Source: a virus (Duplodnaviria > Caudoviricetes). Taken from it: a stretch of 44,189 nucleotides of DNA. The notes beneath the pieces were generated by a model, which saw nothing but the letters and a program-made list of their open reading frames with translations, was not told the origin of the DNA and did no database searches. A program made the position numbers and the translations under genes. This document shows positions 29,107-44,189 of this stretch, piece by piece. How positions within the stretch are numbered: the first letter of the stretch is position 1; each line of letters begins with the position of its first letter. The stretch is from positions 1 to 44,189 of IMG/VR virus record IMGVR_UViG_3300020045_005439; one strand, written 5' to 3'.

Positions 29107-30906
29107 ATGGCGTTAAATACTAAAAGAGAAAGAGTACAAGTATTCACATTGGATGAAGCAGGTTTAACGCCTACTGTTCCAAGTGTACAAGACCATAAGA
29201 CAGCAGGTTGGATAGATGAAACAGATATATATAAAGGTGAAATAGCTATTAATTTAGTGGATGAATTGCTATGGACAAGAACAGATGCAGGCATAATAAG
29301 CATAGATTTAGCAGGAGCAGCAGTACCAGCAGGAGCAAATACACAAATACAATTTAATGATGCTGGGGCATTTGGTGGAGATGCGGGATTAACTTATGAT
29401 AAGACGACAGATATTTTTACTATAACAAATGGTACACAAACAATATTAAATACTACTACAACAAACGGAGGGTTAGAATTATTTGAAGCTACACTGGCAG
29501 TTACAAGTACATCAGACACTAGTGATAATTATGAGGGAGGGAAATTTGTCGTTACAGGTGGAGGGGCAGGCATAGATTACAGCGCAGGAGATGGAGGATT
29601 GATAGGATTACAAAGCACCATAGCAAATATAGGCACAGGAGTATTAACATTAGGATTAGGATTAACTGTAAGCATTAATAATTCAAGTACAGGAACGATA
29701 ACAGAAGCAGATTTTATAAGGTTAAATCCAACAAATACACTATTAGCAGGCACATTTTCAGAAGTTAATGGTATGAGATTTGGCAATGTATCTGGGTTGG
29801 GTTCAATATCAGATTACAATGCTTTTAATTTTGAAAGCCAATGGATAAGTAATAGTAGAGCCATTAAAATAGAGGCAAACACTTATGGATTTATACCGAT
29901 TTCCACAGCAGATACAGGGATAACATTTGCTTCGTCAAATCTAACATTTGCAACTACTACATTAGGAGATATAAATATTAGTGCGATAGATGATATAAAT
30001 ATATCTACCGTAGATGGACAATTTGTATTAACAGTTCCGCTTTCCGATATAATATTTAATGTATCAGATTCAGGAATGGTTGTATTACAAAATACATCGT
30101 TGGGATCGACAGGCGTAAACATTGAAACATACCAAAATTCTCCATCGCCCGCAGTTAATGACAATGTATTTTTACTTGAACATTATGGAGAAGATTCAGG
30201 TAGTAATAAAACACGTTACGGATCTTTTTCTGTTACGGCAACAAATGTAACTGATGGAGATGAAACATCTAAAATGATATGGTCAATTACAAAAGATGCA
30301 ACTTTCGGACAAGCCATGTCATTAACTTGGATTACAGCACAAGGCGTAGAACTCGAATTAGGAGATGGATTAACAGAAGCAAGTATAACGAGCGAATTAG
30401 GATCAGCAACAGATCTAGTTCTTTATGGAGATAGATCAGGAGGCGGATCGAGTATAAGATTAAATGCAGGAAGTGGAGGAGGGATTGAATTAAATCCACA
30501 TACTACTAGTGGCGAGGTAGAGCATGGAAGCAATCAGGCTAATGGGGCAGGATGGAAAACATTAATTAAACAAATATCTACAACTAATGCAACAGCAACT
30601 ACTATACATTCGATACCAGTTGCAGAAGGGCAAGTAGTAACTATTGTTAGATATTTGAATGGCATACAAACAAATGCCAATAACAGAGCAACATATGGAT
30701 ACCAATCATGCTTTTTTAGAGTAGCAGCAGGCAACGTAACAGAACAAGGATCAACTACAAGAATATATGAAAAAGAAAGCAATGCTGCTTGGAATATTTT
30801 ATTTACAGCCAATATAGCAACGCAGTCCGTAGACCTTCAAGTAGTAGGAGCAGCAGGAGCGAATATAAATTGGAAAGACTATATAAATTACATGATCTTA
30901 TCATAA
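29107..30906 (+). CDS. Tail fibre / receptor-binding protein
   Basis: GEIAINLVD..LW N-terminal anchor, PAGANTQIQFNDAGAFGGDAGLTYD motif, G/T/S-rich beta body. Confidence 0.8.
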   Translation: MALNTKRERVQVFTLDEAGLTPTVPSVQDHKTAGWIDETDIYKGEIAINLVDELLWTRTDAGIISIDLAGAAVPAGANTQIQFNDAGAFGGDAGLTYDKTTDIFTITNGTQTILNTTTTNGGLELFEATLAVTSTSDTSDNYEGGKFVVTGGGAGIDYSAGDGGLIGLQSTIANIGTGVLTLGLGLTVSINNSSTGTITEADFIRLNPTNTLLAGTFSEVNGMRFGNVSGLGSISDYNAFNFESQWISNSRAIKIEANTYGFIPISTADTGITFASSNLTFATTTLGDINISAIDDINISTVDGQFVLTVPLSDIIFNVSDSGMVVLQNTSLGSTGVNIETYQNSPSPAVNDNVFLLEHYGEDSGSNKTRYGSFSVTATNVTDGDETSKMIWSITKDATFGQAMSLTWITAQGVELELGDGLTEASITSELGSATDLVLYGDRSGGGSSIRLNAGSGGGIELNPHTTSGEVEHGSNQANGAGWKTLIKQISTTNATATTIHSIPVAEGQVVTIVRYLNGIQTNANNRATYGYQSCFFRVAAGNVTEQGSTTRIYEKESNAAWNILFTANIATQSVDLQVVGAAGANINWKDYINYMILS

Positions 30907-31052
30907 TCATGATAGATATAACCAGCTATATAATCTTTGAGATATTTCATTCTACCTATGAAGATTATGATGGAGTCTATTATGAAATAATACCAAGTGA
31001 GTCGGTTTTTTAAATATAAATATATATATTTGTTATATAAATATATAATTAT

Positions 31053-31256
31053 ATGACAATACAAGAAGCAGTAAATGTATTATGGCAAGCAGCTTTATTT
31101 GGACAAAGTAAAGGTATTTATTCATTAAAGCAATCGGCACAATTATCAGAAGCCGAAGATGTTCTTTTCCCTAAAACTGAACAAAAAAAAACCGCAGAAC
31201 AAGGCGAGCAGAAGCAAGAAAAGCCAGAAGAAAAAAAACTAGAAATAGTTAACTAG
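31053..31256 (+). CDS. Small hypothetical protein (possible fibre chaperone)
   Basis: 67 aa, GQSKGIYSLKQSA; follows the fibre gene. Confidence 0.55.
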   Translation: MTIQEAVNVLWQAALFGQSKGIYSLKQSAQLSEAEDVLFPKTEQKKTAEQGEQKQEKPEEKKLEIVN

Positions 31257-31257
31257 T

Positions 31258-31677
31258 ATGGTACGTCCAGAAGATTGTTTAAAAAAATACGGTGAACCAG
31301 ATGCAGCTAATAAATGTATGGTATTATTTGATGTACCTACCGAATTAGAGATCGGAGTAATACCCAAAAGAATTTATTGCAATAAAGATTTAGTACATCC
31401 ATTAACTAAAGCATTTAGAAACCTAATTGAAAGAGGCTACGTAAAGGAATTAAAGACATGGGATGGGTGTTTTAATATAAGGAAGATGCGTGGTTTGCAA
31501 AGTATGAGTTTACATAGTTGGGGTATTGCAGTGGATTTAAATGCTTTTGAGAATGGGTTAGGTAAAGAGCCTAAATTATCGGAAGGTTTTGTAAAATGCT
31601 TTACTGATGCAGGATTTGATTGGGGTGGGGAGTTTAGACGTTTTGACGGAATGCACTTTCAGCTTAGTAAAATATAG
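31258..31677 (+). CDS. Endolysin, M15 family (D-Ala-D-Ala carboxypeptidase-like) peptidase
   Basis: SLHSWGIAVD (SxHxxGxAxD), WGG, DGMHFQL. Confidence 0.9.
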   Translation: MVRPEDCLKKYGEPDAANKCMVLFDVPTELEIGVIPKRIYCNKDLVHPLTKAFRNLIERGYVKELKTWDGCFNIRKMRGLQSMSLHSWGIAVDLNAFENGLGKEPKLSEGFVKCFTDAGFDWGGEFRRFDGMHFQLSKI

Positions 31678-31678
31678 T

Positions 31679-32236
31679 ATGAATAGATTTAATAAAGACG
31701 GATTTAGAAAGTGCTCATGTTGCAAGCGTGAGAAAGAGCTTACTTCTGTTAATTTCTACAAAGATAAAAATAGGCTGAGTGGGATGTCTTATAGATGCAA
31801 AGAATGTGATAGAAAAAAGAAAGATGAAAGAAAGGGGAGATATAAAAAATTATCGCCTGAATTAAAAGAAAAATACAAAGCAAAGAATAGACTTTATACT
31901 TCATTTGGAAGTGGAAGGGCAACCGCAATGATTTGCGCATATAGAAAAGCAGACAGAAAAAAGGGTCAAACATGCGATTTAGATAGGCAATTTATATTGA
32001 CAGAAGTATTTAAGAATGAATGTTTTTATTGTGGGGATAAAAATAATATTGGCTGCGATAGGATTGATAATAATCTAGGTCATATAAAATCTAATGTTGT
32101 TCCATGTTGTAGAGATTGCAATACTAGCAGAATGGATAATTTTACACACGACGAGATGAAAATTATAGGGATGGCCATCAGAATTGTTAAAGATCGAAGA
32201 AAGAACGAGGATTTCAATTATCAAAAATATAAATAA
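31679..32236 (+). CDS. HNH-like Zn-binding endonuclease
   Basis: CSCC..CKEC Zn finger; CFYCG...GCDRIDNNLGHIKSNVVPCCRDCN; start moved to ATG 31679. Confidence 0.8.
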   Translation: MNRFNKDGFRKCSCCKREKELTSVNFYKDKNRLSGMSYRCKECDRKKKDERKGRYKKLSPELKEKYKAKNRLYTSFGSGRATAMICAYRKADRKKGQTCDLDRQFILTEVFKNECFYCGDKNNIGCDRIDNNLGHIKSNVVPCCRDCNTSRMDNFTHDEMKIIGMAIRIVKDRRKNEDFNYQKYK

Positions 32237-32242
32237 AACTAT

Positions 32243-32524
32243 ATGTGGGCAAATTTATTTTTAAAGGGTATACCGAGTTTAATAACAGCTATACCAAACA
32301 TGTTTAAAGACGTACAAGGCAAAGTAAGTAGTAAAAGAGTAATAGCCTTAGTAGGTGGTGGAAGTATTATAACAGTAGGATTAGGAATAGTAGAAACAGC
32401 CGTAGCAGCAGGCAATGATAAGTTAGCTTGGATAGGGGTAGTAGTATTAGGATTAGGAGTGATAGCTTCTTATATTGCAGCATTTACAATAAAAGAAAGT
32501 AAACCAGAGGATACTACGAAATAG
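32243..32524 (+). CDS. Holin (putative)
   Basis: GKVSSKRV followed by two TM helices; in the lysis block. Confidence 0.7.
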   Translation: MWANLFLKGIPSLITAIPNMFKDVQGKVSSKRVIALVGGGSIITVGLGIVETAVAAGNDKLAWIGVVVLGLGVIASYIAAFTIKESKPEDTTK

Positions 32525-32558
32525 TTTTGTCTTTGTTTGTGTTGTTTTTCCATTTGTC

Positions 32559-32588
32559 AGGGCGTAGCCGTAAGGTTGCGCCTTTTTT
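32559..32588 (+). terminator. Intrinsic terminator ending the late operon
   Basis: AGGGCGTAGCC-GTAA-GGTTGCGCCTT then a T-tract. Confidence 0.85.
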
Positions 32589-32748
32589 ATATCCCCATAT
32601 ATCACTTGGGAACGATTTCATACCCAAAATAGTACACTTTAGTTCTCAAATTTTCAGTGAGCTGGGAAAACTTAATTTTAGCCGAATCCTGAGCTTACCA
32701 AAAAAACCGTTCGCCACCATTTTTTAAATAAATTTTATTATAGAAATA

Positions 32749-32779
32749 TTTGCACATTAGATTTAATTGTGTATATTTG
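32749..32779 (+). promoter_or_regulatory. Bacteroidota-type housekeeping promoter (-33/-7)
   Basis: TTTG (32749) - 19 nt - TATATTTG (32772), 17 nt before the first early gene. Confidence 0.8.
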
Positions 32780-32796
32780 TATATAATTAAAATCAA

Positions 32797-33129
32797 ATGG
32801 GAAAAACAAAAGACATCTACATAGATTATTGCCAAGAGGGTAGTGATCTAACAAACATAGAAGTAACATATTTAGACGAAAATGAATGGTATGAAAAAGA
32901 GTTAAAATATGATCTAGTAAAAGAGTTTATAGACTTTTATTATGATGAAGCAAAGGAATATGATACCTCAGAAATTGACGAAGATGGATTAAGAGGCGTA
33001 TATAGAAATTATGAGGCGCTGATATTCCAATATGGCCTAGAAAGAATAATGAAAGACTATTTAGAATATGAAAAATTCTTAACAAACACAAACCCAACTC
33101 AAACTTATGGAAACAACGCAACTGCCTAA
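32797..33129 (+). CDS. Hypothetical acidic early protein
   Basis: 110 aa, D/E/Y-rich, first gene after the promoter. Confidence 0.7.
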   Translation: MGKTKDIYIDYCQEGSDLTNIEVTYLDENEWYEKELKYDLVKEFIDFYYDEAKEYDTSEIDEDGLRGVYRNYEALIFQYGLERIMKDYLEYEKFLTNTNPTQTYGNNATA

Positions 33130-33769
33130 TACAGTATCTGGCTTTGATTTGACTAAGCCAGAGGAAACATTACAACTAGCGAATATTTTAAAACAGTATT
33201 TAACACAGCAAAAACTGACTTGTAAAATACAAGGTAAAGACTATGTATTAGCAGAGGGATGGATGTATGCAGGTTCACAATTAGGTATTATACCAATATG
33301 CCAAAAACCCACAAGAATATTTAATGAAGGAGAGGTGAAATACGAATGTGAAACAACATTAGTAAAAATAAACACAGGAGAAAAGATGGGTTATGGTTAT
33401 GCTATTTGCTCTAATTTAGAAAGAAATAAAAAGAGCTTTGAAGAATATGCGATAGCATCAATGGCACAAACTAGGGCAATAGCAAAGGCATACAGAAATC
33501 TATTAGCATGGATAGTAAAGGCAGCAGGATTTGAGGCAACTCCTTACGAAGAAATGGAGGGAGTAGCAACGGAAAACTATAACCAAGATAAAGTACCTGA
33601 TTTAAAAATAAACTATAAAGAAGATAATAGAGAGTGGTTGACAGAGCAGCAATTTATAAAGGCAAAAGAAAGGATCATAAACGGAGAAAAATTATTATTA
33701 GGAAAATTAAAACAAACCTATAAAATGAAAAAGATTTATAGAGAGGAACTAGATAAATTATTGCAGTAA
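33107..33769 (+). CDS. Putative ssDNA-annealing / recombination protein
   Basis: IQGKDYV..EGW, SMAQTRAIAKAYR, ATPYEEM; position typical; family uncertain. Confidence 0.55.
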   Translation: METTQLPNTVSGFDLTKPEETLQLANILKQYLTQQKLTCKIQGKDYVLAEGWMYAGSQLGIIPICQKPTRIFNEGEVKYECETTLVKINTGEKMGYGYAICSNLERNKKSFEEYAIASMAQTRAIAKAYRNLLAWIVKAAGFEATPYEEMEGVATENYNQDKVPDLKINYKEDNREWLTEQQFIKAKERIINGEKLLLGKLKQTYKMKKIYREELDKLLQ

Positions 33770-33969
33770 TGCACCCAGAGCCAGCCTATACAGACAAAGA
33801 GCTGACCTATGCAACGATAGCACTAATAAATAATGTCTGGTTAAAGTTTACAGAAAAGGAATGGGAAGGTAGTTTAGAAGTACGAGATGAGTTAATAATA
33901 AAAACGGACTCCTATAATTTCAGGATTTTTATAAAGAATATAGTTTATATACAAATAAAAAATAAATGA
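33769..33969 (+). CDS. Hypothetical protein
   Basis: 66 aa, coupled on both sides. Confidence 0.6.
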   Translation: MHPEPAYTDKELTYATIALINNVWLKFTEKEWEGSLEVRDELIIKTDSYNFRIFIKNIVYIQIKNK

Positions 33970-34220
33970 AACTAGATATAAAATCAATAGAGTTAATTGA
34001 AAAATCAGATGCTTATTATATTATCGTAATAAAAGACGAAAAAAATTTTTCATTAATGCGGGGGATATATTCGGAGCAAATCCAAACAGTAAAAAAAATT
34101 GTGGAAGGTATGCTTGGAATTGTTAATGAATCTATAAATAAAAATAATTTGGGTAATTCACAGCCATTGATGTTATTTATAATGCAGGCCATTAAAAAAT
34201 TCCCAATATTCAAAAAATAG
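33966..34220 (+). CDS. Hypothetical protein
   Basis: 84 aa, overlapping start. Confidence 0.6.
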   Translation: MKLDIKSIELIEKSDAYYIIVIKDEKNFSLMRGIYSEQIQTVKKIVEGMLGIVNESINKNNLGNSQPLMLFIMQAIKKFPIFKK

Positions 34221-34238
34221 TTTTATAACTAAAAAACA

Positions 34239-34523
34239 ATGGAAACATGTAAAATAGTAAGAGGCTGTCTTGATTGTCCATTCTTAGAAGATGGTATGGA
34301 TGGGCTGTATTGTATTCATCCATATTGGGAAGGGCGAGGGCATGAAAAAGTTATAATTTCAGCTAATACACCAGATAACTGCCCTTTAAAAATAGAGCCG
34401 TTCATCCGTATAATTAGATTATATAAAGAGGGGGAGGTAATTATAGAACGTAAAGAAAATAATGAATCACTTATAGATAAATATAAAGCCTTCTATACAA
34501 AGGGTGCAATAAGATTACAATAA
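34239..34523 (+). CDS. Hypothetical Cys-rich protein
   Basis: CLDCPF...YC...PDNCPL motif. Confidence 0.65.
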   Translation: METCKIVRGCLDCPFLEDGMDGLYCIHPYWEGRGHEKVIISANTPDNCPLKIEPFIRIIRLYKEGEVIIERKENNESLIDKYKAFYTKGAIRLQ

Positions 34524-34542
34524 TAAATAAAAAACAAACAAC

Positions 34543-34671
34543 ATGAAAAAACTAATTAGAGATACAATGGGCTTCTTTGGCTATGCCGTATTTATGGCTG
34601 CAATGATAATCTTAGGCCTTTTTTCTATTTGGGGAATATTAATGATAGTAGGCATGAAATTAAATTTTTAG
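34543..34671 (+). CDS. Small membrane protein (42 aa, not in ORF track)
   Basis: MKKLIRDTMGFFGYAVFMAAMIILGLFSIWGILMIVGMKLNF; A-rich leader. Confidence 0.55.
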   Translation: MKKLIRDTMGFFGYAVFMAAMIILGLFSIWGILMIVGMKLNF

Positions 34672-34674
34672 TAT

Positions 34675-34953
34675 ATGATAGGTAAAAAAATATCGCCAAT
34701 CCTCGAAGAACTAGAAGATACACTTTGGGATTATGAAGCTAGAGGTGGAGGTAAACCAGAATATACAATAGAAGGGTTTAGGGGGGCAATAAAGATCTTT
34801 ATGTCCGTTATGATGGACAAGATGTGGGAGCTACAATGCAATGAGAAAATGACGATAGAAGATAAATCTAATATGGTTATTAAGTTGGGCAATGAGGTCA
34901 GGGATTTAGTTAAAATATATACTGATATAGATACTTTTGAGCTTTATAAATAA
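34675..34953 (+). CDS. Hypothetical protein
   Basis: 92-aa ORF. Confidence 0.7.
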   Translation: MIGKKISPILEELEDTLWDYEARGGGKPEYTIEGFRGAIKIFMSVMMDKMWELQCNEKMTIEDKSNMVIKLGNEVRDLVKIYTDIDTFELYK

Positions 34954-34966
34954 AAATATAAATAGA

Positions 34967-35032
34967 ATGACAAGAGAAGATTTTATAAAACTCTACTGCG
35001 AAAAATCTAAAATATGGCAAAAGAGATTATAA
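34967..35032 (+). pseudogene. Probable truncated gene interrupted by the cassette array
   Basis: MTREDFIKLYCEKSKI runs into the duplicated block at TAAAAT (35008) and stops 6 codons later. Confidence 0.4.
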
Positions 35033-35247
35033 AAGAAAACGAACTTAATGTGATGTATCATCATACTGGAATAACGAGATTTACAGGATGCCAATGCTTT
35101 TGTGATTGTTCTTGTAATGAAGATTTTAAACCATCTAAATATGATTATTACACCGTTAAAAGAAAGAATAAGAAAACAACCAATCACCAAACATTAGAAG
35201 ATGCAAATGTTCGTTGGAATTTTGTCTGTGCGTTGGCAGGCAATTGA
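35014..35247 (+). CDS. Cys-rich hypothetical protein, copy 1
   Basis: 77 aa, CQCFCDCSC; 75/77 identical to copy 2. Confidence 0.75.
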   Translation: MAKEIIKENELNVMYHHTGITRFTGCQCFCDCSCNEDFKPSKYDYYTVKRKNKKTTNHQTLEDANVRWNFVCALAGN

Positions 35248-35380
35248 AGCTAACGGTCTGCAAATAAATACAGTACGGATATGAAAGATAAAATTGACTT
35301 AATATTTAGTAACCTCAAAAATGAGTGCATAACTGAAAAACAAGCACATCAGCAAGTATTGGATTTGTTTACTGTTATGC
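35248..35380 (+). repeat. attC-like site 1 (loop carries the N-terminus of a CDS)
   Basis: AGCTAAC...GTTATGC; imperfect arms TAACGGT..CAAAT..CAGTAC / GTATTG..ATTTG..ACTGTTA. Confidence 0.65.
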
Positions 35381-35487
35381 CATCGTTGCCACAATCTGAT
35401 ACCTGCCCAAAATGCAGTGCATATGATTGGAGTTACCACGCAGGAATTGAAAAGATGAAATGTGGTGATTGTGGCTATGAGGCATAA
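35281..35487 (+). CDS. Chimeric Zn-ribbon protein spanning a GTT junction
   Basis: 68 aa; CPKC...CGDC; Val codon GTT at 35374; the stop is the TAA of GGCATAAC. Confidence 0.7.
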   Translation: MKDKIDLIFSNLKNECITEKQAHQQVLDLFTVMPSLPQSDTCPKCSAYDWSYHAGIEKMKCGDCGYEA

Positions 35488-35566
35488 CGTTTTGCAGATT
35501 GGCGATCGGTTTGTGAAGCGTTGGCATTGTGCGGTTGGACAAACTGCCGCCAATGTGCTGTTAGCT
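35482..35566 (+). repeat. attC-like site 2
   Basis: GCATAAC..GCA-G-ATTGGCG..GGTTTGT / ACAAACT..CGCCAAT-G-TGC..GTTAGCT, 85 bp. Confidence 0.8.
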
Positions 35567-35610
35567 TTAGTTGCCTTGCGTGGATTTATTAACGAATTAA
35601 ATTTTAAAAT

Positions 35611-35844
35611 ATGGCAAAAGAGATTATAAAAGAAAACGAACTTAATGTGATGTATCATCATACTGGAATAACAAGATTTACAGGATGCCAATGTTTTGGT
35701 GATTGTTCTTGCAATGAAGATTTTAAACCAAGTAAATATGATTATTACACCGTTAAAAGAAAAAACAAGAAAACAACTAATCACCAAACATTAGAAGATG
35801 CAAATGTTCGTTGGGATTTTGTCTGTGCGTTGGCAGGCAATTGA
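35611..35844 (+). CDS. Cys-rich hypothetical protein, copy 2 (cassette B)
   Basis: Inside GTTAGCTTTAGTTGCCT...AGGCAATTGAAGCTAAC (35560-35851). Confidence 0.75.
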   Translation: MAKEIIKENELNVMYHHTGITRFTGCQCFGDCSCNEDFKPSKYDYYTVKRKNKKTTNHQTLEDANVRWDFVCALAGN

Positions 35845-35934
35845 AGCTAACGGCTGCGGCTTAACGAAGTAAAATTTATACCAATGAAAAATATAAAAGA
35901 CATAAATTTTATTTTGTTTAAGCCGATGTTATGT
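35845..35934 (+). repeat. attC-like site 3
   Basis: AGCTAAC..CGGCTTAACGAAGTAAAATTTAT / ATAAATTTTATTTTGTTTAAGCCG..GTTATGT, 90 bp. Confidence 0.8.
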
Positions 35935-35968
35935 TTAGTATTTTTTATCATTTAATTTTTTTTGAGCG

Positions 35969-36499
35969 ATGGCAAACATTATTTTTAATAGAACTTGGGA
36001 AATGCCTAACAGCAACACTTTTGATATTAAGTGCATCAGCAAATTGATACACAAATATTATAAGCCGGAACTGGAAAGCATAGACCCGTTTGCGAACAAA
36101 TGCAAGTTGGCGAAGATTACAAACGACCTGAACCCGGATTATAAAACCGATTTCAATTTAGATGCTGTGGACTTTCTCAAAAGGTTTGCTGACAACTCCA
36201 TTGACTTTGTGTTTTACGACCCGCCATATTCATTGAGGCAAGTAAGTGAGGTTTACAAAAGTGTTGGCAGGGAAGTAACAATGGAAACAACACAAAGCAG
36301 TTGGAGGACAAAGCACATAAATGAGATTAGCCGAATACTTAAACCGGATGGAGTTGTAATGTGCTTTGGTTGGAATAGTAGCGGAGTTGGAATAAAAAGA
36401 GGGATGGAACTGATAGAGGTTTTATTAGTGCCACACGGAGGAAGCCATAACGATACTATTTGCACAGTTGAACGAAAAATTAAAACATTATTTCATTGA
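35969..36499 (+). CDS. Compact N6-adenine/N4-cytosine DNA methyltransferase (cassette C)
   Basis: SIDPFA SAM-binding motif, DFVFYDPPYS catalytic motif, RILKPDG. Confidence 0.85.
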   Translation: MANIIFNRTWEMPNSNTFDIKCISKLIHKYYKPELESIDPFANKCKLAKITNDLNPDYKTDFNLDAVDFLKRFADNSIDFVFYDPPYSLRQVSEVYKSVGREVTMETTQSSWRTKHINEISRILKPDGVVMCFGWNSSGVGIKRGMELIEVLLVPHGGSHNDTICTVERKIKTLFH

Positions 36500-36533
36500 G
36501 CGTTGGCAAAAATTAAATGATAAAAAATATTGA

Positions 36534-36630
36534 ACATAATGGACGGGGCTTGGCGATAGTGCCACCAAGCAACCGATAAAATTCAAGGCACAAAGCTGAT
36601 TGGTGGCATTTTGCCAAGCCCATGTTACCT
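36534..36630 (+). repeat. attC-like site 4 (TAAT variant core)
   Basis: ACATAAT..GGGCTTGGCGATAGTGCCACCAA / TTGGTGGCATTTTGCCAAGCCC..GTTACCT, 97 bp. Confidence 0.8.
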
Positions 36631-36674
36631 GTCAGTATTTATTAAAAATTAGGGAGGCATTTAAACTAAATAAC

Positions 36675-37037
36675 ATGACAAAGAAATTCACAATGCTACA
36701 ACTGTTCTCCATTTTGGATGGCAGATTATCAACTGAGATTGGAGATGTGTATGAAATGCTAAACCACATTACAGGCGATAGCTTAATGACGCATCATCTG
36801 CCAGTTGCGATGGATTACTTGAAAGAGGTAAATCCCAAATGGTTTCAAGAACTAAAAGCAGAACTTGAAGGAATAAAAAAACTGTGCGGAAACGATTTCC
36901 AAACCTGCATGAATGTGATTAAAGAAAGTTACAATACTGAACATGAAATACCGCAACTTTCTAACGAAGAAAAATCAGGGTTTGGAAAATACATGGTTGA
37001 CAACAGTTTGTTATTGAAGAAACTTAAAACTGCGTAA
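36675..37037 (+). CDS. Hypothetical protein (cassette D), 120 aa
   Basis: ATG 36675 after an A-rich leader; ILDGRL...VYEMLNHITGDSLMTHHLP; inside inverted repeat 36624-37075. Confidence 0.75.
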   Translation: MTKKFTMLQLFSILDGRLSTEIGDVYEMLNHITGDSLMTHHLPVAMDYLKEVNPKWFQELKAELEGIKKLCGNDFQTCMNVIKESYNTEHEIPQLSNEEKSGFGKYMVDNSLLLKKLKTA

Positions 37038-37068
37038 CTGTGCGGTTGGAATTTTTAATAAATATTGC

Positions 37069-37115
37069 AGGTAACACAAAGATTAACGAAATAAAAGTAT
37101 TTAATTGTGTTAAAT
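37069..37115 (+). repeat. Short terminal att-like site 5
   Basis: AGGTAACACAA...TTGTGTTAAAT, 47 bp, abutting a promoter. Confidence 0.5.
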
Positions 37116-37119
37116 AAGT

Positions 37120-37150
37120 TTTGAAATTAAAATATCTTTTTATATTTTTG
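37120..37150 (+). promoter_or_regulatory. Bacteroidota-type promoter
   Basis: TTTG (37120) - 19 nt - TATTTTTG (37143). Confidence 0.7.
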
Positions 37151-37158
37151 TAACCACA

Positions 37159-37419
37159 ATGACAATCAAATTTAAATACGGCTTTATTTATAACGAAGTA
37201 AGATTCGGCTGGCACAAACGAGTACTTTATAGATTGCCTTTTGCAGGTAAAAATAATATGCACTTTGGATTAAAGAAGTTAGAACCATTTATGTTAAATG
37301 GTATATTAACTTACAGATGCAGAAGGGTACACTTAACAGCTAACAGGGTTAAAGAGTTGACCAAAGAGGTGGATTGGGAGGTTATAGTTTGCGAAGATAA
37401 ATTGCATTTACCATTTTAG
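37159..37419 (+). CDS. Hypothetical basic protein
   Basis: 86 aa, FGWHKRVLYRLP. Confidence 0.7.
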   Translation: MTIKFKYGFIYNEVRFGWHKRVLYRLPFAGKNNMHFGLKKLEPFMLNGILTYRCRRVHLTANRVKELTKEVDWEVIVCEDKLHLPF

Positions 37420-37440
37420 GAATTATTAATAAAAAATACC

Positions 37441-37647
37441 ATGAGAATATTTCAATGCTTTATATGTAAAGGAAATTTTAAAACAAATATGGATCCATGT
37501 ATGCACTATGAAGAAGATGAAATGGATGATCAGGGCGAAGTCTCTCTTTGCGATAGTTGCTCTAAAGAAATGCAGGACAGAATAAAAATAAAAAAACTAG
37601 AGAATGAAGTTTCAAAGAAATTCTTTAATTGTAGAAATAATATATAG
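37441..37647 (+). CDS. Hypothetical Zn-finger protein
   Basis: CFIC...CDSC. Confidence 0.6.
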   Translation: MRIFQCFICKGNFKTNMDPCMHYEEDEMDDQGEVSLCDSCSKEMQDRIKIKKLENEVSKKFFNCRNNI

Positions 37648-37678
37648 GCTCTATTAATCACAAATAAAAACAACACAA

Positions 37679-37930
37679 ATGAAACTAACAAGCAGTAACT
37701 ACATTGTCCAATTCAATATGAAAGATGGGCAGATCTTCGGCTATAATCATTCAGATTACTTTATCACTCTTAGCCAAGAAAAATACTTTATAAAGAAAAG
37801 AGACGATAGCGAAGTAGGCTATATAGATTGGCATGAGAATATTATAGACAAGAAAGAATTAGAGTCTATAAAGATATTAGAGCCAGAGCAATCCCTATTT
37901 GATACATTAACTAACGCCTTCAAGCCATAA
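37679..37930 (+). CDS. Hypothetical protein
   Basis: 83 aa, A-rich leader. Confidence 0.65.
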   Translation: MKLTSSNYIVQFNMKDGQIFGYNHSDYFITLSQEKYFIKKRDDSEVGYIDWHENIIDKKELESIKILEPEQSLFDTLTNAFKP

Positions 37931-37933
37931 CAC

Positions 37934-38128
37934 ATGCAAGAAAAATATACTATAACAAAGGAAATAGTACGTGCAATAGTAGTGTTCACCTGTATTATCT
38001 CTGTAATATCTCAGTTATTTTTTTGCTCATTATTATATAAACACGACCATTCTCTGTGGAATTTGTATGAAATGTTGGACGAAATACGGTCAGACATAAG
38101 GGATAATACATTACAAAATTTAAAATAA
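37934..38128 (+). CDS. Small membrane protein
   Basis: One hydrophobic helix. Confidence 0.6.
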   Translation: MQEKYTITKEIVRAIVVFTCIISVISQLFFCSLLYKHDHSLWNLYEMLDEIRSDIRDNTLQNLK

Positions 38129-38144
38129 ACAAAATTAAAATAAC

Positions 38145-38381
38145 ATGACACAGATAATTAAAATGCAAATTGTGAATAAGGGATTAAGAAATAAACTGCC
38201 ACCATTATATTTTGAAACAAGAGAAGCTGCTGAATATATAGTTAATAGATTTAGCGTTATGGAGGTTCGAGGCAAAACAGTAGAATGGGAACTTGAAACA
38301 ATAGAGGCTATGTCAAAAAATGAGGCCTATGCGCAATTTATATCTATGGAAAAAGAACTATTTGAACAGGATAAAATTTAA
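38145..38381 (+). CDS. Hypothetical protein
   Basis: 78 aa. Confidence 0.65.
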   Translation: MTQIIKMQIVNKGLRNKLPPLYFETREAAEYIVNRFSVMEVRGKTVEWELETIEAMSKNEAYAQFISMEKELFEQDKI

Positions 38382-38407
38382 ATATTAACAAACTAAACCA
38401 ACAACAA

Positions 38408-38686
38408 ATGAAAACAACAACAACCATAGTACTACTTATAGTAAGTAGCTTATTATTCCAGAACTGCAAAAAATGTAGACAATGTACAACGTCAGTTAAA
38501 ACAGTAACAGACGTAAATGGCAATGTGCCAGGTTATCCACAAACATCAAATGGATCTAGTAGTTTTGAAGCCTGTGGCGATGATCTAAAAAGAGTAGATG
38601 GCAAGACTACTACTACGAAGTCAACGGCTGGTTCTGGGAATTATACAGCAACGGTAACGATAACATCTAAGACTACTTGTAAATAA
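38408..38686 (+). CDS. Lipoprotein
   Basis: Signal MKTTTTIVLLIVSSLLFQN-C followed by KK; four further Cys; Thr-rich. Confidence 0.75.
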   Translation: MKTTTTIVLLIVSSLLFQNCKKCRQCTTSVKTVTDVNGNVPGYPQTSNGSSSFEACGDDLKRVDGKTTTTKSTAGSGNYTATVTITSKTTCK

Positions 38687-38692
38687 TATTTT

Positions 38693-38899
38693 ATGGAAGA
38701 CAATCCCTATCTATTAACTTATATGGAAGCATTTATAATAAGTCATAAATTGGATGAAAAAATGGATATTAATGATATAGCATCAATATTTTCTATAACA
38801 GTTGATGAAGTTAATGAGCATCTAAGAACTGCGTTATTAAAAATATTGAATGGTGCTGGATCTCGTAAAGTATATCCAGATAAATGGGTACAATTATAA
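38693..38899 (+). CDS. Sigma-70 region 4-like HTH protein
   Basis: LTYMEAFII....MDINDIASIFSITVDEVNEHLRTALLKI. Confidence 0.65.
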   Translation: MEDNPYLLTYMEAFIISHKLDEKMDINDIASIFSITVDEVNEHLRTALLKILNGAGSRKVYPDKWVQL

Positions 38900-39688
38900 T
38901 CTAATATTCTGCACCAAAGCCTTGTCGTTTTTTATGGTAATAAGTGAAATGCCATGATTCCATTTATTAAGAGGCATATATTCAGCTACTAAGCTACAAA
39001 GGCAGCCAGTAGAGTAAGCCTTTATATGATTGCCATTAATATCATGCTCTATATGCTCAGAGGTTTGGTGATGGTGTCCAGCAATGATATTTGTTTTAGC
39101 ACGAAGGAAAAAGCTCCGAGCAGGATTTACTGGCGAGAATGATGAGCTTCCTAGCTCGTGTCCGTGTAATATATTAAGATTACCGACCTTTATTATTCTC
39201 TTATCAGAAATGTAAGAGATGTCCAGTTCATTTAATCCAAGAATTACATCGAACTTAAACTCAGTCATATCTAGCAGCTCAGGAGCTTTTCTTTTTAGAA
39301 AGGATTCCCAGCGCTCTTCATGGTTACCTTGTTTATAATATATTTTAGCTTTATTAAAAGTAAGGCGTATGCGCTTTAAGAAGTCTTTAACCATTTCTAT
39401 TTCACTTTTAAAAGACCTTTTGCGGGGATCTTTTTCAAAGCGAGACACTTGATAATTGTCGGCTATATCACCATTAAGCAAGACCGTATCTACTTTATTA
39501 TCTATACCTAATTGAATAGCTTTGGTAAGCGATTTTACATCATGGAAAGGTATATGTATATCGGATAAGAGAAGTATCCGCTTACATGATTTAGGAAGGT
39601 AAAAAATAGAATAATCGGATTCATCGGGTATTGGTAGGTCGAAAGGATTATTTATGTCTTTCTGCACAAGACATAATACGCAATGCAA
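38894..39688 (-). CDS. Calcineurin-like metallophosphoesterase
   Basis: SDIH, NGD..D, GNHE, HGHE, GHHH motifs; only convincing minus-strand gene; start uncertain. Confidence 0.9.
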   Translation of the reverse strand: MHCVLCLVQKDINNPFDLPIPDESDYSIFYLPKSCKRILLLSDIHIPFHDVKSLTKAIQLGIDNKVDTVLLNGDIADNYQVSRFEKDPRKRSFKSEIEMVKDFLKRIRLTFNKAKIYYKQGNHEERWESFLKRKAPELLDMTEFKFDVILGLNELDISYISDKRIIKVGNLNILHGHELGSSSFSPVNPARSFFLRAKTNIIAGHHHQTSEHIEHDINGNHIKAYSTGCLCSLVAEYMPLNKWNHGISLITIKNDKALVQNIRL

Positions 39689-39707
39689 ATAAATAGGTTA
39701 CAGACAT

Positions 39708-39738
39708 AAAAAAAAGAGGCATTTACGAGATGCCCCTT
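39708..39738 (-). terminator. Intrinsic terminator (minus strand)
   Basis: On minus: GGGGCAT-CTCGTAA-ATGCCTC then T8. Confidence 0.75.
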
Positions 39739-39782
39739 AAATAAAACTAAAATGATTACTGATTATTAGACTGTAAAATAGT

Positions 39783-39819
39783 AAATAAAAACCACTCTAC
39801 CTACAACAATAGAGTGGTT
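39783..39819 (-). terminator. Intrinsic terminator (minus strand)
   Basis: AACCACTCTA/TAGAGTGGTT 10-bp stem then TTTATTT on minus. Confidence 0.7.
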
Positions 39820-39907
39820 AATTAAAATCAAAAACTCAACAAAAATGCGTTACAAATATATACAAAAATATAACATTATTATTATATAAAAGTATTATTT
39901 TTATACG

Positions 39908-40114
39908 ATGGAAGGTTTAAGAAAGATATTAAAAACAAGGGGAATAACACAAATATGGTTATGTAAAAAAGTAGGAGTACACCCTATGACGGTTAGTATG
40001 TGGTTTAGGGCCGTTAAAGATCAGAGGGGTAAAGAAGTAATGCGTATACCTAGACAAAAAACACTAAGGAAAATATGTAGGGTTTTGAAGGTAGAAATGA
40101 CAGATCTATTCTAA
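39908..40114 (+). CDS. Cro/XRE-family HTH regulator
   Basis: LRKILKTRGITQIWLCKKVGVHPMTVSMW...P...TLRKICRVLKV..TDLF. Confidence 0.85.
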   Translation: MEGLRKILKTRGITQIWLCKKVGVHPMTVSMWFRAVKDQRGKEVMRIPRQKTLRKICRVLKVEMTDLF

Positions 40115-40118
40115 TCTA

Positions 40119-40898
40119 ATGAACATACTTTTCGGGAGTGCTTTTAATTGGGCAAAGCAATTAAGAAAAATAGATCACATCGTAACTGTAAAGTATAGCA
40201 GGCACTTCATCTACTACATAGAGCGTAATAGGCAAGACAAATATGGTGTTATAATACCATGCCACTACCATGAGATGTTTGTATGTAATGAAATAAACCC
40301 ACCATTTGCAGACAAGATAATATGCTGCAAGGATTCAGATACTATAAGGCTACTAGATAATAAGCTATTATTTATAAAATGGATGGTCAATAACAGCTAT
40401 CAGGATTATATACCCAGAATATATAAGTATAATGACAATGGTAAAAATTTCTTTTTAGAGAGCATGGCATATCCAGCCATTTATAAGCCGAACATACAAT
40501 CTGGTGGCAGGGGTATCTACATGCTGCATAATGAAAGTGATAATCCTTTAGGTTGTAAAAACTATACTATACAAGAATATGTAGACGATCCGACTGAATA
40601 TGTAGGAAACTTCTATGTAAAGGATGGCCAAATAAAATTTGGTTTAGCCTTTAAAGGTAAAATAAGTGGTTATATAAAAAAGGGTAATATAACGAACTAT
40701 AAAGTAGAGCCTATAAAGGATCCAATCTTTGCAGAAATATTCAGCAAATTAAACTACTCTGGCTTTGCCTGTGCCAACTACAAGAAGGTAGGTAATAGAC
40801 TTCTAATCTTAGAAATAAACCCACGTCTCGGAGGCAGTATCGTCCATGATACAAAGTACCTGAATGAGATCATATCGGTGGTGATAAAAAATATGTGA
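40119..40898 (+). CDS. ATP-grasp domain protein
   Basis: DNKLLF, YPAIYKP..SGGRGI, IQEYV, ILEINPRLGGS. Confidence 0.85.
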   Translation: MNILFGSAFNWAKQLRKIDHIVTVKYSRHFIYYIERNRQDKYGVIIPCHYHEMFVCNEINPPFADKIICCKDSDTIRLLDNKLLFIKWMVNNSYQDYIPRIYKYNDNGKNFFLESMAYPAIYKPNIQSGGRGIYMLHNESDNPLGCKNYTIQEYVDDPTEYVGNFYVKDGQIKFGLAFKGKISGYIKKGNITNYKVEPIKDPIFAEIFSKLNYSGFACANYKKVGNRLLILEINPRLGGSIVHDTKYLNEIISVVIKNM

Positions 40899-40939
40899 AT
40901 ATTTTATAATATTATAATTACTTTTATTATATTTACTTT

Positions 40940-41188
40940 ATGAAAATAATAAAAGAAAAACTATCCACCTATAAGATAGGTCGCGGAGCAACCCCTAAAT
41001 ATGGTTTCGATAAATTACAATTAGATGATTGTTTGATTATAGATCCTGAAAATGACCTATATAAGCAAATACACAGAGTAAGATCTGCAACATTCGCTTA
41101 TAAAAAACATAATGGCTTAGTAGATAATATCTATAAAGTATTATATGATAAAGAATCAAATAAAATTAAAGTTTATAGAGTAAAATAA
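40940..41188 (+). CDS. Hypothetical (putative DNA-binding) protein
   Basis: GRGATPKYGFDKLQLDD...IKVYRVK. Confidence 0.65.
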   Translation: MKIIKEKLSTYKIGRGATPKYGFDKLQLDDCLIIDPENDLYKQIHRVRSATFAYKKHNGLVDNIYKVLYDKESNKIKVYRVK

Positions 41189-41195
41189 AAAAATT

Positions 41196-41561
41196 ATGAA
41201 AAATAACGATATAGAAAAAGCAGAAAAAGAATTTGAGATAAGAGAAAACGAAATAAGAGAGAGAGTAGAATATAACATAAAAACAGAAAACCATCTGGAT
41301 GATCTCAGGAGAAAATGTATAACTGGTCATATAAGGCATGTATTATTAGGATTAGCTCGCTGCATTAAGCATGAGGAGAATGGTTATAGTTGGTCATATA
41401 GCGATGATTATGTAGCTATACCAATAGAAGATTTAAGTTTTATTCTAAATAATTACTTAGAATATATATTAGAGGACGAGTATTATCCTATAACAAATGA
41501 TGTATTTAAGCAACACATTAAAAATAAAATAGATAACAAATTAAAGGAATTAACTAAATAG
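41196..41561 (+). CDS. Hypothetical protein
   Basis: 121 aa. Confidence 0.65.
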   Translation: MKNNDIEKAEKEFEIRENEIRERVEYNIKTENHLDDLRRKCITGHIRHVLLGLARCIKHEENGYSWSYSDDYVAIPIEDLSFILNNYLEYILEDEYYPITNDVFKQHIKNKIDNKLKELTK

Positions 41562-41568
41562 CAAACAA

Positions 41569-42540
41569 ATGGATTTAGAATTAAACGAACCACAAGAAAA
41601 CTATGGTACGGGGTGGATAGCTATATATCGTTCTGTTAAAAAGCACTGGATATGGAATGATCCAGTAAAGTTTCAATGGTGGGTATATATATTGATGGAA
41701 GTCAACCACTCAGATAATAAAGTATTAATTGGTAATGAACTAATTATTTGTAAAAGAGGGGAGAGTTTAAAGAGTTTAAGAAGTTGGGCGAAAGAACTAA
41801 GAACAACTCCAAATCGTTTCAGAATTTTTCTACAACTCTTACAAAAAGATTCTATGATTAGTTTAAAAACCGTAACGAAAACAACACACATAACTGTATG
41901 TAACTATGAGAGTTACCAGAAAAGTGGAACAACAATCGATACAAAAACGAAACAAAGACGGTACAACAATCGATACAATAACAGAACAACAATCGATACA
42001 ATAACAGAACATGACCGACCTACAAACAATAATTATAATAATATAAACAATGAGAAGAATGATAACAATTCTAAAAATGAAAACAAAGAAGAAAGAAAAG
42101 CCGAAGAAAAATTTTCATCGCTTAGCAGCGATGTTTCTTTTTCTCCTGATTTAAAAGAAGAAATACGAAAAGATCTGGTAGATATGTATTATGAATGGTC
42201 TCGTGCAAAATTAGGAGTTGAACCGCAATATGATGGTTCGGATGGAAACGCAATGAAGCAGATAATCTCATATTTAAGTTCACAATTTAAAAGCAAAGAA
42301 GAAATAAAACTTAACTGGGGCGTGGTGCTTTCAAGTTACGACAAGTGGGATCCATTCTATAAAAAACAAACCAGAGTAAGGCAAATAAATTCTAATTTAT
42401 CAAATATTATAAACCAAATTAAAAACCATGAACAACTTACCAGAAAAAACACCAGACCAACAGTCGATGATGTACTTGCAGAGTTTAGGAGACAGCAAGC
42501 CGCTAAGTCTGCAAGTAATAGTAACCAAAGCACTATCTAG
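41569..42540 (+). CDS. Replication initiator (lambda O / DnaD-like)
   Basis: GWIAIYRSVKKHWIW N-terminus, winged helix, ITVCNYESYQ, low-complexity linker with internal DNA repeats. Confidence 0.85.
   Translation: MDLELNEPQENYGTGWIAIYRSVKKHWIWNDPVKFQWWVYILMEVNHSDNKVLIGNELIICKRGESLKSLRSWAKELRTTPNRFRIFLQLLQKDSMISLKTVTKTTHITVCNYESYQKSGTTIDTKTKQRRYNNRYNNRTTIDTITEHDRPTNNNYNNINNEKNDNNSKNENKEERKAEEKFSSLSSDVSFSPDLKEEIRKDLVDMYYEWSRAKLGVEPQYDGSDGNAMKQIISYLSSQFKSKEEIKLNWGVVLSSYDKWDPFYKKQTRVRQINSNLSNIINQIKNHEQLTRKNTRPTVDDVLAEFRRQQAAKSASNSNQSTI
41929..42008 (+). repeat. Iterons / putative replication origin
   Basis: ACAACAATCGATACAA at 41929, 41963 and 41986 (last two form a 23-bp tandem), followed by an A-rich tract. 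Confidence 0.8.
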
Positions 42541-43024
42541 GGAAATACTTTCGCTTGCAGCGATTAAAAGAGAATATGGATATGAAACTCAACAGTCATT
42601 ATTAATTCAGGAAATAACAAAACTAAACGATGTTTTGAATGTTGCAAAACAAATGACAGCCGCTCAGATTTTTAGTGCTGCTGAGTTTATAGTTATACCA
42701 ACAGATGAAGCATTATACTGCTTAACAATCGAAGATATAAGGCTTTGTTTTAGTAAGGCAATCATGGGTCATTATGGCGAAATATATCGTTTGGACGTTA
42801 ATATTATATGCCAATGGCTTGGTAAATACATGGATGAACGCAAGCAAATGTCAGAGCAAATAAATATAGGTATCCACAACCGCCTTAGAAAGCAAGAGAA
42901 TGACGGCACAACAATAGAAGGCATAGATTACTTTGGAGAGCGTGATTTAGATGGTTTCGATAGAAGAAAAAAGAAACGCGATGACATGATGCGAGAATTT
43001 TACGGAGATTCATACAAAGGTTAA
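42428..43024 (+). CDS. Putative helicase loader-like replication protein (DUF6633-like)
   Basis: Follows the initiator; LTIEDIRLCF..GHYGEIYRLD..ICQWL. Confidence 0.6.
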   Translation: MNNLPEKTPDQQSMMYLQSLGDSKPLSLQVIVTKALSREILSLAAIKREYGYETQQSLLIQEITKLNDVLNVAKQMTAAQIFSAAEFIVIPTDEALYCLTIEDIRLCFSKAIMGHYGEIYRLDVNIICQWLGKYMDERKQMSEQINIGIHNRLRKQENDGTTIEGIDYFGERDLDGFDRRKKKRDDMMREFYGDSYKG

Positions 43025-43056
43025 AACCTTAAATTTACATTTGTATATGATCAAGG

Positions 43057-43087
43057 TTGCACGATCTACTATTTAGTAGTATATTTG
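43057..43087 (+). promoter_or_regulatory. Bacteroidota-type promoter
   Basis: TTG (43057) - 20 nt - TATATTTG (43080). Confidence 0.6.
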
Positions 43088-43142
43088 TATACCCAAAATA
43101 AAATAATCGCTAATTTAACGCAACGGGTACTAAAATAAATAA

Positions 43143-43529
43143 ATGGAAAAACTAGGACAAGAGATAACTAAAAACAAATTCCTTTACAGGCAAATGCAAA
43201 GAAATGACTATGCCGCCATTTATGAACAGTACGGCAAGGCATGGGATGGGAAGCCAATGGTTTTTGGATATGAAGTGTTCTGGATTAAAAAACAAGAGGC
43301 TCAGAAAATAAAAATGCAGGGGATCGAAATAGAACTGAAAGAGAAAGAATTATTCCCCAGCGATAATGATTTTGGATTAACTGCATGGTCTGTAAAAAAA
43401 CTAGAGACAGCCCAAAAAATCTACAAGAATTTTAAATACGAGTTTATTAATAATTATATCAAATACACAAAATCAAAATCAAATGGAAAATCAAAAACAA
43501 ACAAACCAGAAAAAAGTTTACAGCGGTAG
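43143..43529 (+). CDS. Hypothetical protein
   Basis: 128 aa, GYEVF...ELFPSDNDFGLTAWS. Confidence 0.7.
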   Translation: MEKLGQEITKNKFLYRQMQRNDYAAIYEQYGKAWDGKPMVFGYEVFWIKKQEAQKIKMQGIEIELKEKELFPSDNDFGLTAWSVKKLETAQKIYKNFKYEFINNYIKYTKSKSNGKSKTNKPEKSLQR

Positions 43530-43980
43530 TATCCTAGAAGGGATCAGAGACTATAAACAAACAGATTTAAGAGATCGTGAAGCGTATGGGATGCCTCCCA
43601 TTAAAGAACAAAACGCCTATATGTATAAAAACATAATAGGAGCCTTTAATGAGTGGAAAGAAAAACGAGCCTTTACTAATTATCCTTTTGGCTATCACTT
43701 TTTATGTACCCAACTTCAACTTTGGGGGCTAGTAGAATTTACAGAACAAAATATTATTTCGTTAAAAGAGGAAATAGATATTCGTATTTCTACAAGCAAA
43801 GTAAACTTTATGAAGTCTATCATGGAAGCTGACAGGGTAGGCGGTCTTAGGAAATGCCGCGCAGAAGAAATAGTATTAGAGCGTTATTTCGATTGGATTA
43901 TAGCAGAAGAAATAGATTTCCAAGCGCTACTCAGAGAGGCTATAAAAAAAGACAATGACAAGAGCAAGTATATTTCATAG
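43483..43980 (+). CDS. Hypothetical protein
   Basis: 165 aa. Confidence 0.6.
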   Translation: MENQKQTNQKKVYSGSILEGIRDYKQTDLRDREAYGMPPIKEQNAYMYKNIIGAFNEWKEKRAFTNYPFGYHFLCTQLQLWGLVEFTEQNIISLKEEIDIRISTSKVNFMKSIMEADRVGGLRKCRAEEIVLERYFDWIIAEEIDFQALLREAIKKDNDKSKYIS

Positions 43981-44014
43981 AAAAAGACAAGTTGTCCAAA
44001 AAAGATATTAACAA

Positions 44015-44189
44015 ATGGAACCAATATTAGAAGAAACCAGCTATGAGAAATTCCTAAAAATATTCTCAGAGGGTTTAGATATACTACAAATATCTAATAG
44101 GCCAGACAAATTGGCTATGCTAGAGCTTATCCAAACCGCTAAACGCATTCACCCCGATTGGATATGCTCTGATATAATAACAGCTTTTA
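44015..44189 (+). CDS. 3'-truncated hypothetical protein (MEPILEETSYEKFLKIF...)
   Basis: Open to the contig end; the frame continues in the reverse complement of 1-34 (...AFKWLVKGKLFDY). Confidence 0.6.
   Translation, partial: MEPILEETSYEKFLKIFSEGLDILQISNRPDKLAMLELIQTAKRIHPDWICSDIITAF

Follow-up and report, generated by a model that had tools for sequence, protein, structure and literature searches.

An integron-like cassette array without a recombinase in a tailed phage contig, and its probable relatives in Bacteroidota

INTRODUCTION

How does a phage genome that encodes no tyrosine recombinase come to hold a row of gene cassettes, and to which recombination system does such a row belong? 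The question is raised by the 44,189-base contig of a tailed phage, record IMGVR_UViG_3300020045_005439, analyzed here as a whole and called the window; it carries four cassettes, A to D, each with a body whose two ends are complementary and each preceded by an imperfect hairpin (h0 to h3; Table 1). An initial annotation, made from the sequence of the window, had taken these for integron-like cassettes recombined at G/TT and driven in trans by a host recombinase. The excerpted text of PMC9024848 describes integrons as nearly absent from Bacteroidetes, and gene cassette formation has been named an outstanding question (PMC8618304).

We conclude that the four cassettes are best explained as an array of an integron-like system of Bacteroidota, here in the form it takes in phages and with its enzyme missing; we put the probability of this reading at about 0.82. 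The array works like an integron and is, by a loose definition, a cluster of attC sites lacking an integrase (CALIN); it does not belong to the IntI integrons.

RESULTS

A site family with its own anatomy

The four bodies proposed by the initial annotation were all recovered, their ends pairing at 8/8 positions in A, 15/17 in B and 30/33 in C; in D the repeat consists of 8 bp, one bulged base and a further 17/18 positions. Both mismatches in B and all three in C are G-T on the + strand. From TAAC to GTTA, hairpins h0–h3 measure 127, 79, 84 and 91 nt, which agrees with the 85–133 described earlier once the flanking 3 nt are counted. Four attC-like sites lie within 1.4 kb of the window and no integrase is encoded in it: a tyrosine recombinase was detected neither by comparison of 67 open reading frames (ORFs) with Pfam nor by tblastn with a related enzyme (E≤1), so that the claim of no recombinase in cis holds. 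The cores do deviate from GTTRRRY, as had been noted (0/4 fit). Two site-body-site chains were found in 33001–40000, and none in 100 block shuffles of it.

Related loci (numbered L) provided a set of 179 cassettes from 66 mostly viral loci and a chromosomal set of 49 cassettes from 24 loci. A first detector, asking for an 8-bp end match, was dropped, since it produced numerous spurious links where the DNA was AT-rich. Across an initial set of 60 cassettes, pairing of the body ends extends over 14–15 bp; position 11 of this outer arm is G-T in 45 and Watson-Crick in 3, while positions 12–14 are Watson-Crick in about 50. In the larger sets position 11 is G-T in 166/179 viral and 39/49 chromosomal cassettes (Watson-Crick in 6 and 0); in the window it is G-T in B and C, and a single bulged base displaces it in A and D. 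The 5′ hairpin arm exceeds the 3′ arm by 2–4 nt in 174/179 viral and 45/49 chromosomal sites; the difference in an aadA7 attC control, read by eye, is 1 nt. Judged from these sequence features, the sites make up one non-classical family, with a 14–15-bp outer arm, a fixed G-T pair and an asymmetric spacer; h0–h3 fit the form of the Bacteroidota non-IntI sites (TAACG..TGTTA hairpin, asymmetric spacer, outer arm).

Each of h0–h3 folds better on + than on −; fold z-scores of h1–h3 are given in Table 1, and h0 (−1.5) folds weakly, with the family geometry kept. Among viral cassettes the TAACG..TGTTA strand, which is the gene strand, folds better in 155 of 179. The G-T pairs exist on one strand only, and thus the substrate would be a folded single strand. 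The earlier suggestion of single-strand folding is consistent with this, except that the strand corresponds to the bottom, and not the top, strand of attC: compared with the aadA7 control, the + strand has attC bottom-strand polarity, TAACG..TGTTA. In a classical cassette the gene lies on the top strand and is followed by its attC; the genes of the window are therefore inverted with respect to classical cassettes. Genes are on the bottom strand in 4/4 cassettes of the window and in 173/179 viral cassettes. The ATG lies within the leading hairpin in 69/179 viral cassettes, ORF A included, and the hairpin start was in frame in all five short-leader methyltransferase cassettes looked at.

The long inverted repeats that had been taken as a peculiarity of these cassettes are indeed present, but the extended repeat is the family-wide 14–15-bp arm, reaching at least 22 bp in 11/179 viral and 0/49 chromosomal cassettes. 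G-rich motifs lie just inside the long end repeats in 9 and 7 of the 11, and in 11 and 7 of 157 short-armed cassettes.

A linked recombinase in Bacteroidota and their phages

A site pattern run across a genome collection, a search of the kind that the initial annotation had proposed, gave 122 loci; of 80 listed, 78 belong to Bacteroidota. Nine recombinase-like ORFs came out of a search of the loci by motif. Five head chromosomal arrays (L242, L254, L272, L308 and L312, with a single detected site in L272) and that of L086 follows a phage array; L270, whose recombinase goes with an IS91-like transposase, and L261, with no detected sites, were excluded from the linked-enzyme count, and L274 was unmapped.

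Relatives of the L086 enzyme were examined in the best 80 of 120 viral loci. Same-polarity sites lie upstream of the recombinase in 51 of the 52 viral loci having 1.5 kb of upstream sequence and downstream in 0/77, and an AAC ends 51–53 nt before the recombinase ATG in 51/53, these loci being kin and their counts not those of independent events; L429 additionally has opposite-polarity sites. The docking consensus derived from 39 flanks is TAAC/TACTATATGTA. A recombinase linked to similar sites, which had been anticipated, was thus found, as an XerA-like enzyme, both in viral loci and on Bacteroidota chromosomes.

The IntI-specific insertion lies in the catalytic domain (PMC8138268). All seven enzymes tested score below the TIGR02249 cut-off (265) and also below the Xer family cut-offs. 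Residues 175–212 of the L086 enzyme correspond to 177–262 of VchIntIA (2A3V), i.e. ∼48 residues fewer, and align to XerA without gaps. The chromosomal enzymes are 38–43% identical to the phage enzyme, and the five were aligned to it without an insert; among solved structures, the linked enzymes match the archaeal XerA-type proteins 4A8E and 5HXY best. Unlike XerA, XerC and XerD, which serve a chromosome dimer site, the linked enzymes go with folded sites that vary. No match to the L086 recombinase at E 1e-40 was found in 50,697 GenBank phage records; blastn of the array against the same records matched the methyltransferase gene alone, in six records.

Chromosomal and phage arrays agree in polarity, spacer asymmetry, outer arm, G-T pair and a related recombinase. 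The chromosomal ones differ in classical gene orientation (44/49 cassettes), in hairpins of mostly ∼126 nt and in having no long end repeats; their enzymes carry a 70–290-aa N-terminal extension and are co-oriented with the cassettes, whereas the phage enzymes have no extension. In L242, L272, L308 and L312 this extension shows a Trp-rich repeat with a weak DUF5710 match, and in L242 an ssb gene (6092–6439) directly follows the recombinase. Of the proposal that a Bacteroidota host supplies the enzyme in trans, the link to Bacteroidota stands; the enzyme may also come from another phage.

Comparison with classical integrons and phage CALINs

Judged by sequence comparison, with classical integrons (IntI, attI and attC, as in class 1 and the Vibrio superintegron) the family has in common imperfect palindromes with AAC/GTT boxes, better folding of the bottom strand, the AA/C crossover, and cassettes stacked behind one docking site adjoining a tyrosine recombinase gene. 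It differs in the missing IntI insertion, the asymmetric spacer, the outer arm with its fixed G-T, the non-GTTRRRY cores and, in phages, inverted genes and hairpin loops that encode N-termini.

Qi et al. (2023) reported 17 phage CALINs, defined by the lack of an integrase and by two or more attC-like sites in 3 kb (PMC9892861). Like the window, these are integrase-less rows of attC-like sites with orphan DNA methyltransferases (PMC9892861). Polaribacter phage P12002L (NC_028924) carries two arrays of the window's site family: its attC1 has the geometry of h2, its genes are on the bottom strand and its end repeats are extended. One site of the family, P12002L_attC1, is to that extent already in print (PMC9892861). 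In the excerpts of that paper the sites are treated as classical attC; the site family, inverted genes, outer arm, loop start codons and cognate enzyme are not described in them (PMC9892861). In the literature searched, whose coverage left most subscription papers outside, we found neither the site family nor its enzyme described, nor phage cassettes with inverted genes, and no account of the Bacteroidota chromosomal arrays. The P12002L_attC2 sequence, which recombined with IntI1 (PMC9892861), is present in NC_028924 in two identical copies (locus L091, ∼29240 and ∼37270), each of them closing an array on its right; it looks like a docking or array-terminal site, not a cassette hairpin.

One could suppose that the window simply holds an ordinary CALIN, i.e. 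classical attC sites served by a classical IntI integrase of some host. The AAC/GTT boxes, strand polarity and crossover point do agree with classical attC (PMC8946536; aadA7 control), and Qi et al. obtained recombination by IntI1 at five of the six phage sites that they assayed (PMC9892861). We nevertheless consider this quite improbable. No core of the window is GTTRRRY, the longer 5′ arm is close to universal in the family (174/179), the conserved outer arm with its G-T falls outside the R box, and the linked enzymes have no IntI insertion. The sole family member among the sites tested, P12002L_attC1, failed with IntI1, as an oligonucleotide without the paired outer arm (PMC9892861), and IntegronFinder detects almost no integrons in Bacteroidetes in the excerpted data of PMC9024848.

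The mobile unit and its crossover

The complementarity of body ends is symmetric and cannot, therefore, assign a hairpin to a gene; relatives and contig breaks are informative here. Two identical loci (L082 and L083), from a phage that is otherwise unrelated, match the window solely at 36537–37075, with 97.4% identity: h3 plus body D, with TAAC at both ends. The same piece is present in L092, L103 and L150, whose contig is equal in length to that of L082/L083, as well as in record 22 of run X2 (runs are numbered X). That the array is integron-like and mobile, as first claimed, is borne out. Three pairs among the 179 cassettes have the same body; both informative pairs keep the leading hairpin while both neighbours differ, and the third has identical context. 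Cassette B has a truncated copy, B′ (35002–35256 versus 35599–35853, 95% identity over 255 nt), which has neither hairpin nor left arm and whose left end is unrelated; B and B′ stop at an identical TAAC and continue into different hairpins.

In assembled contigs from four runs of four studies (4 of 15 runs listed) breaks occur at hairpin starts (35483, 35846, 36541 and 36544) and at body ends (35852, 35853, 36539, 36543 and 37075). The breakpoints lie on AAC beside unrelated sequence, with no flanking homology and no target duplication. One joint, 33965–35934 (side 24), was set aside as a likely repeat artefact. The usual mobile unit is thus a leading hairpin plus the downstream gene, with crossover at AA/C on + (G/TT on −). 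The initial annotation's placing of the crossover at G/TT on the + strand has to be given up, since the breakpoints put it at AA/C and the hairpin belongs to the next gene.

Phage accessory regions are mosaic in general, and the hairpins could be regulatory or ‘boundary’ elements, or the bodies small transposons with terminal repeats, the mosaic having arisen by ordinary homologous and illegitimate recombination of phages. Exchange of genes inside the frames described below could well use that route, and the methyltransferase of cassette C is free in 62 of 69 rows of its tree. As an account of the whole array it is very improbable: the breakpoints fall on AAC without homology or target duplication, and neither a G-T pair on one strand between ends hundreds of bases apart nor a strict linkage to a recombinase would be expected. 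No Rfam family covers the hairpins in window positions 30000–44189 or in 12 array loci; Flavo-1 RNA (RF01705) had no match in 30000–44189 and a single one, outside the sites, in the 12 loci. Scans for sigma-70 promoters and terminators gave chance levels only, with no terminator-like site at the hairpins.

The converse unit, a body with its trailing hairpin cut at G/TT on +, fits the symmetric ends equally well, as it does some bodies found behind other hairpins, but is hardly credible as the usual one, given that all informative shared units retain the leading hairpin, that 69/179 ORFs begin inside it and that arrays end at AAC 51–53 nt before the recombinase gene; it may be a minor, opposite-strand route.

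Turnover of cargo within lasting frames

Hairpin h3 (86–89 of 91–93 bases identical) leads five unrelated ORFs (blastp E at least 0.4). These frames have a common leader up to the ATG at position 51–52 and a common trailer of 35–38 nt from the stop codon; one ORF reads through the trailer. Among hairpin families (at least 85% identity, 47 members) 17 of 18 have unrelated cargo, and the same is true of 45 of the 49 pairs. Unrelated-cargo pairs are more alike in leader and in trailer than random pairs are (0.65 versus 0.50 and 0.59 versus 0.49), the pairs being non-independent, and the arms of such pairs change in concert.

Cassette A is a chimera, as two partial relatives show. L435 has h0 and the arm (117/140 identical) and the same N-terminal peptide with a different C-terminus; in L436 the zinc-ribbon end and right arm (35400–35488) are 89% identical behind a different N-terminus, and there is no convincing left arm. 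Shuffling at GTT as a way of joining N-termini encoded in loops to new genes, considered at first, was abandoned once the unit was recognized as hairpin plus downstream gene; N-terminus fusions arise through exchange within the frame.

The cassette C ORF matches phrog_11619 (E 1.4e-48), its Pfam N6_N4_Mtase score being below cut-off. For the methyltransferase tree the best 80 of 185 matches were taken, which gave 69 distinct proteins; besides the free rows, the gene lies in bodies in six, and in one it occupies a hairpin loop that is followed by a 72-bp empty body. Seven state changes are needed, which do not separate gain from loss, and the hypothesis that the six body cassettes arose only once is rejected (p-AU 3e-63); some ‘free’ rows (L007, L018, L027) look like decayed cassettes. 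On this tree, the methyltransferase moved into or out of cassettes repeatedly. For the gene of cassette B the one relative found in viral contigs is a free gene, in L081. D shares its last codons with the L176 gene, a match that microhomology would explain as readily as a dedicated step would.

In L034/L035/L149, L113, L134, L135, L179 and L184 genes, several of them methyltransferase-like, apparently lie in hairpin loops, where the same leader motif and an AT-rich repeat precede them, with a 72-bp empty body after the loop gene in L034/L035; the leader-motif scan is mostly noise, the flanking repeat occurring in 9 of 56 ORF-bearing matches. The gene-free loop of h1 (35510–35540) has two tandem G-rich motifs, like the leader and trailer motifs flanking cargo in B, C and D, and is possibly an empty slot. 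An 84% direct repeat (35957–35981 and 36491–36515) brackets the methyltransferase gene just inside the 33-bp inverted repeat; its left copy, with its AT-rich arm, precedes another gene in run X8. Record 4 of run X1 has an apparent 29-bp empty body ahead of h2 and the start of C (before window position 35846).

Further features of the window

The window encodes a terminase (3092–4324) and an M15 peptidase (Pfam scan), and has portal, tape-measure-like and DnaD-like PHROG matches; the array sits within a run of small co-oriented genes. Its right-hand hairpin, h4 (46 nt, z −1.5), has no partner body end that we could find and no match to the phage docking consensus; it is a candidate for either a decayed site or a secondary docking site. 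TAnnTTTG, presumably the Bacteroidota −7 promoter element, occurs at 34932 and 37143, immediately before and after the array, among four occurrences on + in 33001–41000, counted without a control. Between structural genes, 13530–19866 holds nine genes, several matching glycosyltransferases (GT2, weakly GT8, GT-D), a sulfotransferase and a SAM methyltransferase, possibly for glycan modification of virion or DNA. On the − strand, 38894–39688 encodes a calcineurin-like metallophosphoesterase adjoining a helix-turn-helix gene and an ATP-grasp-like gene.

Table 1. Elements of the array, by position in the window
Element	Position	Strand	Content
B′, truncated distal copy of cassette B	35002..35254	+	ORF 35014–35247, 77 aa, phrog_34260; right arm present
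Hairpin h0, leads cassette A	35251..35377	+	Loop carries ATG (35281) and first 31 codons of ORF A
Cassette A body	35374..35488	+	ORF 35281–35487, 68 aa; C-terminal CxxC-CxxC zinc-ribbon-like stretch
Hairpin h1, leads cassette B	35485..35563	+	z −4.3; contig pieces begin at its TAAC in run X2 (records 16, 17)
Cassette B body	35560..35851	+	ORF 35611–35844, 77 aa, function unassigned; pieces end at 35852–35853 in runs X2 and X11
Hairpin h2, leads cassette C	35848..35931	+	z −3.8; P12002L_attC1 family; X1 record 4, X8 record 24
Cassette C body	35928..36540	+	33-bp end repeat; ORF 35969–36499, orphan DNA methyltransferase-like, DPPY motif
Hairpin h3, leads cassette D	36537..36627	+	z −4.1; reused ahead of five unrelated genes
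Cassette D body	36624..37075	+	ORF 36675–37037, 120 aa, DUF7736 (Pfam PF24875, E 2e-14)
h4, short off-pattern hairpin, docking end of array	37072..37117	+	Weak fold

DISCUSSION

The array was probably built as follows. During replication the + strand would become single-stranded and the hairpin would fold; an XerA-like tyrosine recombinase without the IntI insertion, from the host chromosome or from another phage, would cut at AA/C. The unit would be excised as a circle, the two body ends pairing as the 14–15-bp outer arm, and the circle would insert either at a docking site or at an AAC that serves as a secondary site, the right end being where new units join. Facing the phage's own transcription, the genes would be read from an upstream phage promoter, with the start codon often given by the hairpin loop. 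Cassettes would be renewed by swapping the gene inside a lasting frame of hairpin, arms, leader and trailer. The borders of the units, the anatomy of the sites, the orientation of the genes, the enzyme link in relatives and the turnover of cargo are observed; the single-strand chemistry, the circles, the supply of the enzyme in trans to this genome, the transcription and the way in which cargo is exchanged are inferred.

Several points weigh against this account. The detector demands seven matching end bases, so that pairing at arm positions 2–8 is forced and carries no evidence, and the genome site pattern was derived from sites already seen. Informative pairs of the same cassette are few. 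In run X11, record 12 carries body C (92%; 53 of 628 positions differ) after a hairpin with another interior, and in record 9 other sequence follows the 3′ half of h0; in L001, L004 and L005 similar bodies stand behind unlike hairpins. Hairpins are thus sometimes replaced too. No excision joint or circle was seen in assembled contigs; none of the runs listed covered as much as half of the stretch, and no RNA run was among them. The right end of the window array does not fit the docking consensus of the 39 flanks; with neither an enzyme in cis nor a docking match, the array needs an enzyme in trans or is idle, and it may now be inactive.

One could speculate further about the frames. The palindromic frames, each made up of hairpin, arms and G-rich leader and trailer motifs, might be reusable holders into which a dedicated process loads protein domains or complete ORFs, from their start codon to their stop codon, at either loop of a dumbbell-shaped single-stranded circle. 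Bacteroidota phages would thereby build a pool of inverted cassettes of their own and join N-termini encoded in hairpins to new domains, and this would be the missing step of integrons, cassette formation. We offer this proposal tentatively, as one that is somewhat less likely than not.

Integrons are held to need IntI. A parallel XerA-like system with its own folded sites in Bacteroidota and their phages would widen the definition, and would show a second route to single-strand recombination. Near-identical frames with unrelated genes, whose borders lie at start and stop codons, give a handle on cassette formation; a methyltransferase family found free, in bodies and in loops, together with an isolated phage, P12002L, having the same sites, makes that question testable. 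For phage biology, the system would be a dedicated means to sample accessory genes, such as anti-restriction methyltransferases.

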